Source: Rhizaria sp. SCN 62-66
Taxonomy: Eukaryota
Length of the DNA stretch: 64,000 bases
Direction of reading: 5' to 3'
Assembly (NCBI GenBank): GCA_001724265.1
Contig: MEDY01000121.1
Coordinates: forward strand, 1-64,000
This document shows, in pieces, positions 10,796 to 30,638 of this stretch. The translations under genes were made by a program, and so were the position numbers. The notes beneath the pieces were generated by a model, which was not told where the DNA came from, searched no databases, and was given only the letters and a program-made list of their open reading frames with translations. Within the stretch, counting starts at the first letter, position 1; each line of letters opens with the position of its first letter.

Positions 10796-13700
10796 GCCAC
10801 AGTTTTTTCCTGAAACCGGTGCATGCGCAATGACCCCCGTGTTCTCCCCCTTTAACGCGCACACCAGTGCGGCTATGAGTGTCAGTGCGATGCAAAGCGC
10901 TGCCGTTGCAAACAGCCCGTCACCGTCCCACGTGTTCTTTGCGTTTCCCCCGCCCTCGCCGCTGCCCTACAGCGTCACCGCCGGCGCCAACACGGCGACG
11001 CCTCTCGCAAACGCCAGCGTCGCCGCCGCCGTGGCCGCCGCCGCCGCGGCCGCGGCCGCCGCGCCGACGGCAACTGACCGCTCGCTGTCCCGCACGGCGA
11101 CGCTGGCCAAGGCCGCCGCCGTGCTGGGCTCAAGGCCGCGGTTCGCCGCGCTGCGCAAGGCGCTGCCGGCGCTGCTGCGGGAGCAGGTCGCGCTCGTTGC
11201 GGCGGCACGGCGGCGGGCTTACGCGGGGCCCGCGCTCGTCGCAGCAGCCGACGTTGTCGCCGCAGCGGCGGCGCGGCGCGCGGCGAATCAAGCGGCCGCG
11301 GCCGCAGCAGCGGGGGCGGGGGCGGTGGCCGGCGTTGCGCCTGTGGTTGGGGGGCTTGGGCTTGTGGCACCGCCGAGGTATCAGGCTTTAGTGCTGCCCA
11401 CTGGCGCTGCAGCAGCGGTACCAGCATCTGCGTTAGACGCTGCCTACGTGGGCGGCAATGTGGTCATGACTGTGGGGGCCGCGTAGTCCCTGGCAACATC
11501 GCTTGCGTCGATGGCGTATCACCCGCACTTGCAGCCACAACCGCACCCACAACTTCAACAGCAGCAGCTGCTGCTGCAGATTCCAAGTCACGTGATGTCT
11601 CAGTCAATGCAGCCGCAGCCATCTGCACAGTTACTGCCGCAGCCGCAGTCGCCGTCGCCGATGTTGACGCCAATAGCCGTGCACACAGGGCCCCGGCCGC
11701 TGCAGTGGCGCGCTCTGACACACACCCACACACCGCTAAGCCATACGCCACTGGGCCACGCACCGCATGGCTACACGCCACTGAGTCATGCCAATGCCCA
11801 GAGTATGCATAGTGTATCGCCTGTGCCGGTATCAGGCAGTTGCACTGCTGCTGCCGCCGCCCTGACATCCGGGCAGCCCGCGTACGTGACGGCAGCCAGC
11901 ACATCGCCAGCGCCAATGTCGCAGTCGCAGGCAATGTCTCTTGCGACGGCTCTGCCGTTGCCGCTGCCAAGGAGGGACAGGCGTCTCAGCGCTAGCCCCG
12001 AGCAGCGAACTCAGCTCCCGGCACAGCAAATGGCGCAACAGCATCAAGCTGCGCAGGCTCAGCTGCAACTGCAGCAGCGAAGTTACGCTGATGCGCAAGC
12101 GCAGGGCTCAAGCTTAAGCTCAAGCTCGAGCTCAAGCAGCAGCAGTGTGATCGGCGGCAGTGTCGTCGACGCAAACGATCTTAGCACTTATAACCCGCCT
12201 CATCTTGTCGCCAATCTAAGTGGCATTTGTGTGGATGGAGGCCCGCGCCTAAGTACCTCCGGCGGGGTGAGTGCGAGCGCAAAGCGGCGCGCCTCAGTGC
12301 CGACTGGGCTTGTGGCTGCAACGTCACCGCGTCCCACTGCTGTTGCTGCAGTTGCTGCAGAAGGTCTCACTGCAGCGCCTGCAGAATCAGCAGTGTCGTC
12401 TGAGTCAGCAGAGCAACAACAAGATCAAGCTCCAGATGCAAACGCGCAGTCTCGTCCGTGTTCGTTGCTGCAGTCGCCGTCACTGCTTCAGCCACACCTG
12501 CACTCGCAGTCACAGTCTCAGTCCCAGTCGCAGGCCCAGGCGCAGCAGCAGGGCAGTTTCAGGACCAGGCCAGCCCGACCAGCCACTCTGCCCAGTCCAT
12601 TCACAAACACGCATGACCACACTCACAGTCAGACGCCAAGCCAGAACCAGAGCCACAGCCACAGCGACAGCTACAGTCGGAGCCAGACCGCCACGCCGGC
12701 GCCCGCAGTGGCAGCAAGCACCGCGCAAGACGCGGAGGCTGTGACGACTGGGAGTGGCGATCGCGCTGGAGTCAGTGCCCGCGTCACTGCCGCGTTGGCT
12801 GCGCTGGCCGCCGCGCAGCAGGCAGTGGCCGACGCTCAGGCGGCGGCTCAGGCTGAGACTGAGACTGGGATTGTAGCTGGTCGCGAGTCAGAGTCTGATG
12901 GCGGGGCTGACGCGAGCAGCAGCGGCGACAATGACTCGCAGACATCCTCCGGAGATTCTTCTGATACTCATCATAAAGCAGGCGCAATGAGGGACGAGCG
13001 CGGCAGTGACACGCGCGTTGCTGTCACTACGCCTGTCAAAGCACACCCAGTTCCTAGCGGCAGCTCAGGTTTGTTGGCGCCGCCATGGTCGCCGTCGCAG
13101 TCGCCGCCGCCGCCCCCGCCGCCGCGGCCGTCGCGCTCGCACCAGCGTCTGTCCCCCCTGCCTGCTGCTGCTGCTGCCGCCGCTGCTGCTGCTGCTGCCG
13201 CTGCGGCGGCGGCGGCCGCAACTCCCGCCTATGTGGCGTCACCAACAACAGCGACGGCGGCAGAGTCGGCACAAGCTAAGGACGTAGAGATAAAGCTGAC
13301 GCTAGGTGCCAATCAAGAGCTTTCGCAACAACAGCAGCAAGCGGTGTCAAGTCAAGATGCTCTTGCTGACTCCAGCGACAGTGCGCCTATCGGTGAAAAC
13401 ACGATGATGCTGTATCACATGGCGCACCAAGCTCTCTCCCCAGCGTACATCAGCGTTGCTGCTTGGCTTGACACTGACTCGCCGCCGCCGCCGCCCCCGC
13501 CTCTCCAGTATGACACCCGTCGCGGCAACGCCCCGCCTCTGTATCACGGTGGGCCAACAGCAGCTTCTGTGGCAGCCAAGACCAAGGCGCTGACCGAGCA
13601 GCAGTATGGAGCCACGGCTCGCGGGCCCGACTCGCTGCGGTCACTGCTGCAGCCGCAGCTGCAGCAGCAGCCGCAGTCACGAACTGCTGGCGCTCGCGAT

Positions 13701-28412: not shown

Positions 28413-30638
28413 ATGCAGCCCGCCTCATGGCCGCTGTGTGACCCTTCTCTCTTCGTCCTCGCCGTCAACACGCGCGCCCATTGCGCCCGCACCCGCGGCG
28501 TGGCGTTGGCGGAGCACGACCCGCTCGCGTGGTCCGTTGCACGCGCGCTGCTGCCCGAGAAGGACCTGGCCAAGATCGCCCGGTTCGCGTTCCTGGACGA
28601 CGCCACGCGCGCGCTCGCGGCCGCAGTGTTGTACAGGCTCGCGGTCACGCTCGCCACGGGCACGCCGCTGCGGGAGGTTGTTATCGGCAGGACGGCGGAG
28701 CAAAAACCGTTCTGGCAGCAATCTCAATCGCAGGCGCCGTCTCAGCAGTCTCAGCAGTCTCTTGCGTTTAATGCGACACACCACGGGGCGTGGGTGATGC
28801 TAGCAGCCGTCTCTCGTCCGTTGCCAACGCCAGCGCCTGCAGCAGCGGTAACAGCGACGGCGAGCGCAACTGCGGCATCAGGGGCAGCCGGCGGCAGTGC
28901 TGTTTCGGTCGGCATTGATGTCACGGCGCTTGAAGTGCCTAACAGCCACGGGCGGCCTATCTGCGAGTACGCCAATGGTGCGTATGCTCTTGACAACGAG
29001 AGTGAAAGCCCTCGCGACTCTGATGTGGCAGGCTCTGGCACTGACAGCGCTCTTGTTGGCAGTCTCAACGACACGCCTGCAGAGTCCTGCTCTATGGATC
29101 ACGGCCACGGCCACACTCGCAGGGACGAGGTGAGGATGTCGGTCACGGAGGCGACAGAGAAGGCTGCAGCGAAGCTTGTTGACGATCTTAGCACCACGCT
29201 TACGCGAGAGGAGCTTGCAGTCATTCAGCAACAGCAGCACAACAGCACTCATGCTCGCTGCGACTTCGCTGGTCCGTCGTTACAACCACTCTCTAACTCA
29301 CGCTCTGCTCATGCATCTCCAACACCGGCGACAACAGCGGCGGCTGCGCGCCTCTTTGCGCCCACTCTGCGCCAGTCAAAACTCGCGTTGCGCCAGTATC
29401 CGCGCCCGGCCCCGGGCCCTGGCGCCGCGCTAGAGCTGTTCTACACCCTGTGGGCCCGCAAAGAGGCCGTGGTGAAGGCCGTGGGGCTGGGACTGACCAT
29501 CGAGCCGCAGTGGGTGCAGACGCAGTGTGGGGCGCAGGTGCAGACACAGTCGCAGACAAGGATCCAAACACAGTGTGGAGTGGGCGTCCCTGGCGTCCTG
29601 GGGAGTAATGCGCTCACGGTCACCAACAGGCGGGACGGCTTGGATGACATCACAATCAGTGTGCCAGTGCCTGTCGCCGTGCTCGTGGCCGTGCCTGGGC
29701 TGCTACTCCCAGAGGCGCGACAGTGTCTTCAAGGAGGCAACATCATCGTGTCAAACGCCGGTGAAAGCAGAATCAGTAATGGTAACTCTCGTGTCACAAA
29801 TAGTGCTGCTGGGGACGCTACGCTCACGTGTATTGGTGGCTCCATTGTTTCACTTCCGATCAGCAGCAAGGCAAGCTGTCAGTCAAGCATGCATTCTTCT
29901 GCTTTAGCAAACTCTGATCCCCTATCGTCGTCTATGCTATTGCTCCACGGCAACTCGTGTGTTTGGCGCGTTGATGCGAGCCACGTTGCTGCGCTGACCG
30001 TTCTCGACCCTCCACCCCATATTGAAGAGGCGGGGGCGCAACAAAGCGGCGACTGCAGCGCGTTGGGACGGGGCGACTTCAGGGCGCGAGCGATGAAAGC
30101 GCTGTGGTGTGCAGGGGTGCTTTCCTGCCAGCAACAGAGCGCACGGCAGCAAGATCAAATATCATCATGGCACACGACTGGCGCACCGGCAAGAGCTGAG
30201 TGCGAATATGATATTAGCTCTCAAACTGCTGTTGACAGTGCTGGTGCCTAGAGCTCTGAGGCAGAGACAGAGGCAGAGGCAGAGGCGGAGGCGGATGCTG
30301 TCGCCGCTACGCTTACCTCACTCTCGTTCGTGGTGGAGCTCGACTGGCAGGCCCTGCTGCGGTGGACCGCTTCACAGCTGGGTGTGTCTGTCGCTCTGCC
30401 CGCAACAGCAACAGCACCTACAACAACAACAGCAGCAACAGCAGCAGCTACAACAGCAGGAGCAGCAGCAGGAGCAACAGCAGCAGCAGCAATGACGACA
30501 GCAGTCGCTACCGAACGCGCTCGCGATAGCGTCCCTCAGCATGACTCAAGCAGTGGCGCAAACATTGACGCGAACCATAGCGTCCTCACCGGCAGTGGCA
30601 GTAGCAACAGTGGGAACAGCTTCTGCACCACCCAATAA
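28413..30638 (+). CDS. AASDHPPT: 4'-phosphopantetheinyl transferase (AASDHPPT/Lys5/Sfp type) with low-complexity insertions and one in-frame TAG
   Basis: Motifs FAFLDDATRALA, GRTAEQKPF, FNATHHGAWV, VGIDV, FYTLWARKEAVVKAVGLGL. The frame continues through TAG 30249-30251 into ORF 30330-30638, which ends in TAA. The family call is firm; the 3' end depends on the TAG interpretation. Confidence 0.85.
30249..30251 (+). other. In-frame TAG inside coding sequence (candidate sense codon)
   Basis: GCT GGT GCC TAG AGC TCT GAG GCA GAG; 128 further coding-like codons follow to TAA 30638. Confidence 0.7.

Follow-up and report, generated by a model that had tools for sequence, protein, structure and literature searches.

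Four in-frame TAG codons in two neighbouring genes of a GC-rich wastewater eukaryote and the probable use of UAG as a sense codon

Nuclear genetic codes that give UAG and UAA different meanings are described for a handful of lineages (PMC5304391, PMC11687900). In the rhizarian exLh, a member of the Sainouroidea, UAG encodes Leu and translation stops at UAA and UGA; in the fornicate Iotanema spirale, UAG encodes Gln with the same two stops (PMC5304391). Reassignment of UAG only, to Gln, Leu, Glu or Ser, is reported for phyllopharyngean ciliates, Protocruzia and the green alga Scotinosphaera, with several independent origins, which makes a further lineage plausible (PMC11687900). The codes of Condylostoma, the karyorelicts and Blastocrithidia are ambiguous between stop and sense (PMC4967479, 10.1101/2022.04.12.488043, PMC12153298).

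The window analysed here is a single stretch of DNA of 64,000 nucleotides, and both TAG-bearing genes lie on its forward strand. A sequence-only reading had proposed that UAG is an amino acid codon in this genome while UAA and UGA remain stops. The four TAG codons on which this was based were all found: TAG 1 (11484-11486), TAG 2 (16848-16850) and TAG 3 (25092-25094) are in frame in a giant gene, and TAG 4 (30249-30251) is in frame in a transferase gene, upstream of the C-terminal element of its family. The long open frames said to follow them are real, with 1787, 2747, 110 and 128 codons, respectively. In the giant gene the stop-to-stop ORFs 7533-11486 (1317 codons), 11487-16850 and 16851-25094 abut, and the last 110 codons run to TAA 25425-25427. 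The transferase ORF 28290-30251 is continued by its 128 codons to TAA 30636-30638. As had been claimed, the giant frame contains no internal TAA, TGA or frameshift across 5,964 codons, and its only stop triplets are the three TAGs. The two other forward frames over the same gene hold 29 and 33 TAA, 31 and 45 TAG, and 95 and 151 TGA, so that TAA and TGA together number 124-184 in each against 0 in the giant frame. Because these frames are so dense in stops, open stretches of 1787 and 2747 codons are beyond chance; the stretches of 110 and 128 codons could, by length alone, be chance.

UAG is probably a sense codon in this genome, with UAA and UGA as stops. This part of the original proposal is the best-supported reading after testing, with the qualification that it draws on four TAGs in one window and that none of the four marks a conserved residue, three being in domain-free low-complexity sequence and one in a linker. 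If UAG is sense, the genome would be a further member of the rare but known UAG-only class, a membership that one window cannot prove.

As in exLh, UAG would be sense by itself while UAA and UGA terminate, and its use would differ by gene class, being rarest in highly expressed genes in exLh and confined to weakly biased genes here (PMC5304391). The relatives of the exLh group are coprophilic, which is compatible with the habitat of the present organism, found in bioreactor, wastewater and activated-sludge metagenomes. In exLh, however, UAG is frequent and is the commonest Leu codon of the proteasome genes, whereas in the window it accounts for about 0.03% of codons, with 4 in approximately 13,800 (PMC5304391). 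The likeness is one of code type and usage; a phylogenetic link forms no part of the comparison. Iotanema spirale, a free-living or gut-associated protist, has the same code type, established from transcriptome-wide alignment and a T32G change in eRF1, compared with four sites in one window here (PMC5304391). Unlike the fornicates, the present genome is GC-rich and intron-bearing, and nothing ties it to them. The decoupling of UAG from UAA is shared with the phyllopharyngean ciliates, Protocruzia and Scotinosphaera (PMC11687900). According to the same source, the UAG-only ciliates range from 27.4 to 53.6% GC, with up to 91.1% of genes containing UAG (PMC11687900). The window, by comparison, has approximately 64% GC, introns of 155-240 nt, multi-gene contigs and rare UAG. 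The ambiguous codes resemble the one proposed here in allowing a stop codon to be decoded as sense within genes, but there the same codon also ends genes, whereas here TAG ends none of nine genes and TAA and TGA are never in frame.

These nine gene ends, named in the sequence-only reading, proved real: seven are TAA (25427, 25932, 27727, 30638, 31003, 38076 and 56510), two are TGA (32782 and 39603) and none is TAG. With the 22% TAG share at gene ends of another GC-rich eukaryote, the chance of 0/9 is about 0.1, the sample being small. ORFs that end in TAG and have a coding score adjoin introns or sit within them.

The first coding exon of the giant gene occupies 5404-7394, within ORF 5404-7818 of frame 1; its start codon is not fixed. 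A GTACGT donor at 7395 opens intron 1 (7395-7555, GTACGT...TTTTAG, GC 0.42), and removal of these 161 nt joins the frame of exon 1 to that of exon 2. Intron 2 (7797-7970, GTACGT...GTACAG, 174 nt, GC 0.44) has a predicted 3′ end with an alternative acceptor at 7998. The main exon, 7971-25427, is rich in Ala, Ser, Gln and Thr and ends at the TAA. The earlier description of the introns, with GTACGT or GTGCGT donors and AT-rich bodies, was correct; elsewhere in the window they have GTRCGT donors, GC 0.27-0.49 and lengths of 155-240 nt, and one is confirmed by the joint 27510>27666 of a cDNA contig (X7). A literature search for described lineages with GTACGT donors found none. The giant protein has no Pfam domain. 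A protein search with 400 residues around TAG 2 returned nothing at E<=1e-10, probably being swamped by low-complexity candidates, and exact look-up of four pieces of the giant ORF in the public protein collection found them absent. Internal DNA repeats of the gene, as a source of a paralogous codon at a TAG site, gave only short chance matches.

Under the standard code, the giant gene would be truncated or in early decay, carrying three nonsense mutations, and the TAGs at 25092 or 30249 would be ordinary or recent stops followed by fossil or by chance open GC-rich sequence. This is unlikely, yet several observations fit it. The argument from the exclusive occurrence of TAG, true as a pattern, is weaker than originally put, because a random nonsense mutation in the giant gene has a 59-65% chance of being TAG. 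Neither a domain nor a relative of the giant protein could be recognised, and in-frame TAG is approximately 10-15 times rarer than TAG in the other frames. Compared with a diverged strain (X4), 46 of 7,832 letters of the window differ in the eight pieces listed, in which the X4 letters at TAG 1-3 are not visible. At a neutral divergence of about 0.6%, close to that of the X4 pieces, approximately 2.2 further stops would be expected downstream of TAG 1, so that age by itself is compatible with decay. Against it, four nonsense events would be required in two neighbouring genes, accompanied by no TAA, TGA or frameshift. The signs of a decaying pseudogene, namely mixed stops, frameshifts and lost codon periodicity, were absent from the 5,964 codons, and only a very young pseudogene would come under this unlikely reading.

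The differences from X4 downstream of TAG 1 argue further against decay. Among the 28 listed, codon position 3 accounts for 15 (p=0.02), and the synonymous ones number 14, the expectation being 26% (p=0.006). The three indels listed inside the giant ORF measure 12, 6 and 18 nt, and those outside coding sequence 1, 1 and 2 nt. Composition and codon score likewise stop at TAA and not at TAG. Past TAA 25427 the GC content falls from 0.65 to 0.39, and past TAA 30638 from 0.59 to 0.39; no such fall follows the TAGs of either gene. The in-frame codon score is +0.12 before and +0.17 after TAG 3, and +0.02 before and +0.10 after TAG 4, while past both TAAs every frame scores below zero. The open frame thus runs on beyond the TAGs with its composition, codon score and selection pattern, and UAG stands in frame within genes that show coding signals downstream of it.

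The gene at 28413-30638, from ATG to TAA when read through TAG 4, is assigned as an Sfp/AASDHPPT-type 4′-phosphopantetheinyl transferase on its domains, its W-x-x-KE-A-x-x-K motif and its predicted two-domain fold. The Pfam domains AASDHPPT_N (1.4e-18) and ACPS (9.2e-07) both end before TAG 4, as the standard code would have it. The protein matches human AASDHPPT, and the KE motif is part of its alignment to 2cg5. A search for relatives gave none above 40% identity across approximately 100 residues. A conserved C-terminal element of the family is, however, encoded past TAG 4. Its motif of 14 residues (residues 679-692, encoded at 30324-30365) is the best PSSM site of the whole protein, with a score of 4.46 against -0.69 for the next best and -5.76 for the candidate before the TAG. 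The homologues' median is higher, at 10.0. None of 162 stretches taken from other proteins of the window reached 4.46, and the shuffle P of this score is 0.0065 within the tail and 0.057 over the protein as a whole. In a profile HMM of the transferase C-terminus neither candidate site was significant.

An AlphaFold model read through TAG 4 predicts a strand and a helix at the motif with pLDDT 83-84, the input being a MAFFT alignment that already placed the homologues' C-termini after the TAG, with the preceding His motif misplaced. By VIA-align this model matches 2cg5_A over 257 of its 266 residues (chain 22-299) with Z 23.9 and rmsd 3.5, and Sfp 4mrt_A over 225 of 225, the motif segment falling on the C-termini of both structures. 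Cut at TAG 4, the model covers 230 residues of 2cg5_A (chain 23-259, Z 22.1) and 210 of 4mrt_A (chain 1-210), and the C-terminal element is absent, which argues against TAG 4 as an ordinary stop.

The contigs show the TAGs to be real, unspliced and constant from sample to sample. DNA contigs of another study (X3) cover TAG 1-3 with 0 differences (11033-13151, 14925-18053 and 23765-26131). From a polyA library of a 2025 study (X5), one contig (11473-11679) carries TAG 1 just 11 nt from its end, and a second (24965-25272) carries TAG 3 with 0 differences. An X7 contig (30195-30397) retains TAG 4 on a haplotype with 30317 C>T, a variant shared by X4. Assemblies from four studies, dated 2015-2025, have the same TAGs, in one case on a different haplotype, which also speaks against decay. 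The RNA evidence consists of contigs, not reads, with the small-share runs X6 and X8-X13 and the parts of the stretch without RNA contig cover set aside. X5 includes an unspliced contig across a genuine intron, so DNA or pre-mRNA may be present in this library. As far as contigs allow, both sequencing error and splicing are excluded as the source of the TAGs. Searches for the orthologous locus in metagenome contigs (by the transferase and by a katanin alignment), genome contigs and viral contigs found no relative, and protein searches found no orthologue spanning any of the four TAG sites. The katanin protein search was swamped by WD40 proteins, its best named match being a pedinophyte at 33% identity, and the TTL search returned the protein itself and one JGI relative only.

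A leaky or ambiguous UAG would still end some genes, with a suppressor or near-cognate tRNA reading through and rare UAGs tolerated in weakly expressed genes. This is quite unlikely. Four TAGs among so many codons fit a codon still selected against, and in-frame TAG is missing from eight other genes or exons totalling 7,116 codons. In-frame UAG occurs only in the genes of lowest GC3, 0.61-0.67 against 0.79-0.85 in the others, and these two genes have the weakest codon bias of the window. The base after TAG 1-4 is T, C, C and A, respectively; a C after a stop codon may weaken termination. With three leaky stops in succession, however, the giant gene would yield little full-length product, and the gene ends lack TAG. 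Nor is there stable RNA structure after the TAGs: the 120 nt following TAG 1-4 gave z of -0.98, 0.49, 0.21 and 0.95 against shuffles. Programmed stop-codon readthrough is supported neither by these values nor by the contexts of the four codons, which differ.

A loss or change of the TAGs ahead of translation, through RNA editing or through unusual GC-rich introns with TAG at their 3′ ends, is very improbable, and so is their origin as artefacts common to the assemblies. This genome does often use TAG acceptors, and the pyrimidine run and TAG at 25092 and 16848 resemble them, but the 500 nt upstream of each of the four contain no GTRVGT donor, RNA-library contigs are colinear through TAG 3 (X5) and TAG 4 (X7, which does show the real splice), and independent assemblies agree letter for letter. 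The earlier view that the TAGs are unlike 3′ splice sites was borne out by the lack of an AT-rich dip at 4/4 sites, the lowest 60-nt GC near them being 0.45-0.55 against 0.33-0.38 within introns.

With UAG as a sense codon, it would be translated as an amino acid in nuclear genes, terminating at UAA and UGA, and would be a very rare codon confined to the two genes of weakest bias in the window. Such a system would be expected to include a UAG-reading tRNA (anticodon CUA) and a release factor that recognises UAG less well; a tRNA scan of the 64,000 nt found 0 tRNA genes, and the eRF1 gene lies outside the window. For the encoded amino acid, Gln would be the most parsimonious choice, since CAG is the commonest neighbouring codon, and counts of neighbouring residues around the four TAGs gave no signal. 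Tentatively, an early or incomplete reassignment may be envisaged in an undescribed GC-rich heterotrophic wastewater lineage, in which UAG has gone from gene ends and is reappearing in weakly expressed, fast-evolving genes. If so, it would be a natural snapshot of nuclear codon capture.

A literature search, supplements aside, for wastewater or GC-rich eukaryotes already reported to reassign UAG returned none. Sense use of UAG here would be unusual in three respects, as the genome is GC-rich, is not that of a ciliate and has UAG still extremely rare, and it would bear on whether codon capture or an ambiguous intermediate stands at the beginning of such changes. In practical terms, it would mean that gene callers truncate the proteins of this genome at TAG. 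The transferase entry of the public protein collection has 612 residues and ends at TAG 4, and the ORF of this length is found on seven contigs.

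Four in-frame TAG codons are present where the sequence-only reading had placed them, at 11484, 16848 and 25092 (TAG 1-3) in the giant gene (5404-25427 (+)) and at 30249 (TAG 4) in the transferase gene (28413-30638 (+)). The first three are the sole interruptions in a frame of 5,964 codons extending from 7533 to the TAA at 25425-25427, around which the frame stays open for 1317, 1787, 2747 and 110 codons. TAG 4 is followed by 128 codons up to the TAA at 30636-30638. The giant frame holds no internal TAA or TGA, as had been claimed, against 29 and 33 TAA, 31 and 45 TAG, and 95 and 151 TGA in the other two forward frames. 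The in-frame TAG observation is therefore confirmed, with TAG 1 and TAG 2 far beyond chance. It is reasonably probable that UAG is a sense codon in the source organism, as this explains every point, including why the TAGs are confined to the two genes whose codon bias is weakest (GC3 of 0.61-0.67 versus 0.79-0.85). The proposal that UAG is read as an amino acid gains from the coding signals past the TAGs and from the TAGs being real, but loses from their rarity (4 per ~13,800 codons of the window) and from none of the four falling at a conserved residue. Eight other genes or exons (7,116 codons) contain no TAG. The nine gene ends in the window comprise seven TAA, two TGA and no TAG, in line with the earlier models, although nine ends are only suggestive. 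The window contains no tRNA genes.

Two sources record reassignment of UAG alone: to Leu in a sainouroid rhizarian and to Gln in Iotanema spirale (PMC5304391), and also in phyllopharyngean ciliates, in Protocruzia and, to Ser, in the green alga Scotinosphaera (PMC11687900). The window's genome is unlike ciliate genomes in GC content, intron size and its multi-gene contig. Literature searches, supplements aside, turned up no wastewater or GC-rich eukaryote described as using a UAG-only code. If real, this would be a further UAG-only nuclear code, notable for the rarity of the codon, which would be consistent with a reassignment still at its beginning.

Runs matching the window come from bioreactors, wastewater and activated sludge in several studies (2015-2025), and were compared throughout as Logan contigs. 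X3, a DNA run belonging to another study, has contigs that agree letter for letter with the window over 11033-13151, 14925-18053 and 23765-26131, and it therefore carries TAG 1-3. In X5, a poly(A) RNA library, an identical contig (24965-25272) spans TAG 3, and another (11473-11679) includes TAG 1 just 11 nt from its end. A contig of the cDNA library X7 (30195-30397) retains TAG 4 with one difference, 30317 C>T, also present in X4, a run from a diverged strain. The 612-residue ORF terminating at TAG 4 occurs on seven contigs in a public protein collection. This agreement across X3, X5, X7 and the seven contigs rules out sequencing or assembly error as the source of the TAGs; the check for assembly error proposed earlier finds them kept in independent contigs. 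Another X5 contig (27192-27621) reads unspliced into the real intron 27513-27667, so the library may contain DNA or pre-mRNA of the source organism, and colinear "RNA" contigs are no proof of the mature mRNA state.

The window is eukaryotic nuclear DNA, with a GC content of ~64% on average. Its genes include those for katanin p80, a tubulin-tyrosine-ligase-family protein, a MATH-domain giant protein and a 4'-phosphopantetheinyl transferase. The genome's only relatives in the collections searched are two metagenome proteins, P0004 and P0275. The gene at 5404-25427 (+) exceeds 6,000 codons, almost all of it low-complexity sequence rich in Ala, Ser, Gln and Thr, with SQ, HG and TE dipeptide runs, poly-Pro blocks and two small introns close to the 5' end. 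Neither a Pfam domain nor relatives were found for its product. The MATH-domain gene (45621-56510 (+)) has a weak USP7-type match with no ubiquitin-hydrolase domain detected; it is divided by an intron (52360-52565), and has a GC3 of 0.84-0.85 and no in-frame TAG.

GC1, GC2 and GC3 are continuous throughout the giant frame. The GC content falls from 0.65 to 0.39 directly past TAA 25427, and from 0.59 to 0.39 past TAA 30638, with no fall after the TAGs, which bears out the unchanged composition reported from sequence. A codon log-odds score trained on the window's own genes is +0.12 before and +0.17 after TAG 3, +0.02 before and +0.10 after TAG 4, and negative in every frame past both TAAs. One antisense frame scores similarly to the in-frame value, which is common for GCN-rich sequence. 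X4 differs from the window at 46 of 7,832 letters over eight listed pieces; among the indels listed, those inside the giant ORF measure 12, 6 and 18 nt and those outside coding sequence 1, 1 and 2 nt. The 40 differences listed (90 others exist) include 28 in the ORF, all downstream of TAG 1. Codon position 3 accounts for 15 of these (p=0.02), and 14 are synonymous, versus 26% expected (p=0.006). The in-frame indels and the position-3 and synonymous excess point to coding selection having acted downstream of TAG 1. One X4 piece, with 25 letter differences and 18 gapped letters in 743, marks a hypervariable patch within the giant gene (14378-15126); the seven others listed differ by 0-8 letters each.

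Alignments of the transferase to Pfam and the human enzyme cover the N-domain and KE motif only, both upstream of TAG 4. HMMER returned 149 homologues, none closer than 40% identity, which have in common a short C-terminal motif past a His-x-x-Ala-Val strand. A position matrix was built from 29 homologue sites, drawn from 58 usable tails among the 71 homologues in which both anchor motifs occur. Over the full length of the transferase, the top-scoring site lies 25 residues past TAG 4 (residues 679-692) and reaches 4.46, below the homologues' median of 10.0; the second best scores -0.69 and the pre-TAG candidate -5.76. This score is reached by 0.65% of shuffles for the tail and 5.7% for the whole protein; the same DNA does not reach it in any of its five remaining reading frames, nor does any of 162 stretches of 128 residues from other window proteins. 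Profile HMMs of the C-terminus gave no significance. The AlphaFold2 model read through the TAG matches 257/266 residues of the human enzyme 2cg5_A (chain 22-299, Z 23.9) and 225/225 of Sfp 4mrt_A (chain 1-225), and the model cut at the TAG 230/266 (chain 23-259, Z 22.1) and 210/225 (chain 1-210). In the read-through model the post-TAG motif consists of strand 640-644 and helix 645-655, with pLDDT 83-84; residues 584-612 of the cut model have pLDDT <50. MAFFT had pre-placed the homologue C-termini on the post-TAG segment and misplaced the preceding strand, and the read-through fold therefore leans on the alignment. Together there is moderate evidence that a conserved enzyme element is encoded past a TAG.

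Under a standard code, each TAG would be a separate nonsense event, making four across a pair of adjacent genes. From codon content, 59-65% of random nonsense mutations in the giant gene would be TAG, so the earlier argument that only TAG occurs in frame is weak. Downstream of TAG 1, 2.6% of substitutions would create a stop; neutral change of 0.6%, a level close to the divergence between the strains, should therefore bring ~2 new stops. However, no other lesion accompanies the four events, the TAGs would have had to last through several studies and two haplotypes, selection and coding signals run on behind them, and a conserved enzyme element would be left stranded past a stop. This account is unlikely. 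A leaky or ambiguous UAG is quite unlikely; no unusual RNA structure was found 3' of the TAGs (z -0.98 to +0.95).

Splicing, editing or artefact is a very improbable source of the TAGs. Introns in the window are AT-rich and 108-241 nt long; 14 candidates on both strands, such as 629-793 (-), 35478-35622, 42513-42673, 52360-52565 and 60355-60513, have a GC of 0.27-0.49 between exons of 0.6-0.8 and near-invariant GTACGT or GTGCGT donors. One more intron, 27513-27667 with donor GTGCGT, is verified by the joint 27510>27666 in a cDNA contig. TAG 2 and TAG 3 follow acceptor-like pyrimidine runs. No GTRVGT donor lies within 500 nt upstream of any of the four TAGs, and in the 300 nt around them the 60-nt GC minimum is 0.45-0.55 versus 0.33-0.38 within three real introns, so that the four are very probably not intron ends, in line with what was first proposed. 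The TAGs that end other ORFs (41946, 41091, 60436) are within or adjoining AT-rich introns. On the minus strand, TGA 776 is not the end of the 812-codon ORF at 776-3214 (-): to judge from the GTACGT donor (793) and the acceptor (629), it continues into an exon running off the window start. The tubulin-tyrosine-ligase-family gene contains an intron at ~62430-62622 (+), across which P0275, 74-78% identical in the flanks, is uninterrupted; intron presence thus differs among close relatives, and TAA 62522 is an ORF end within this intron, not a gene end.
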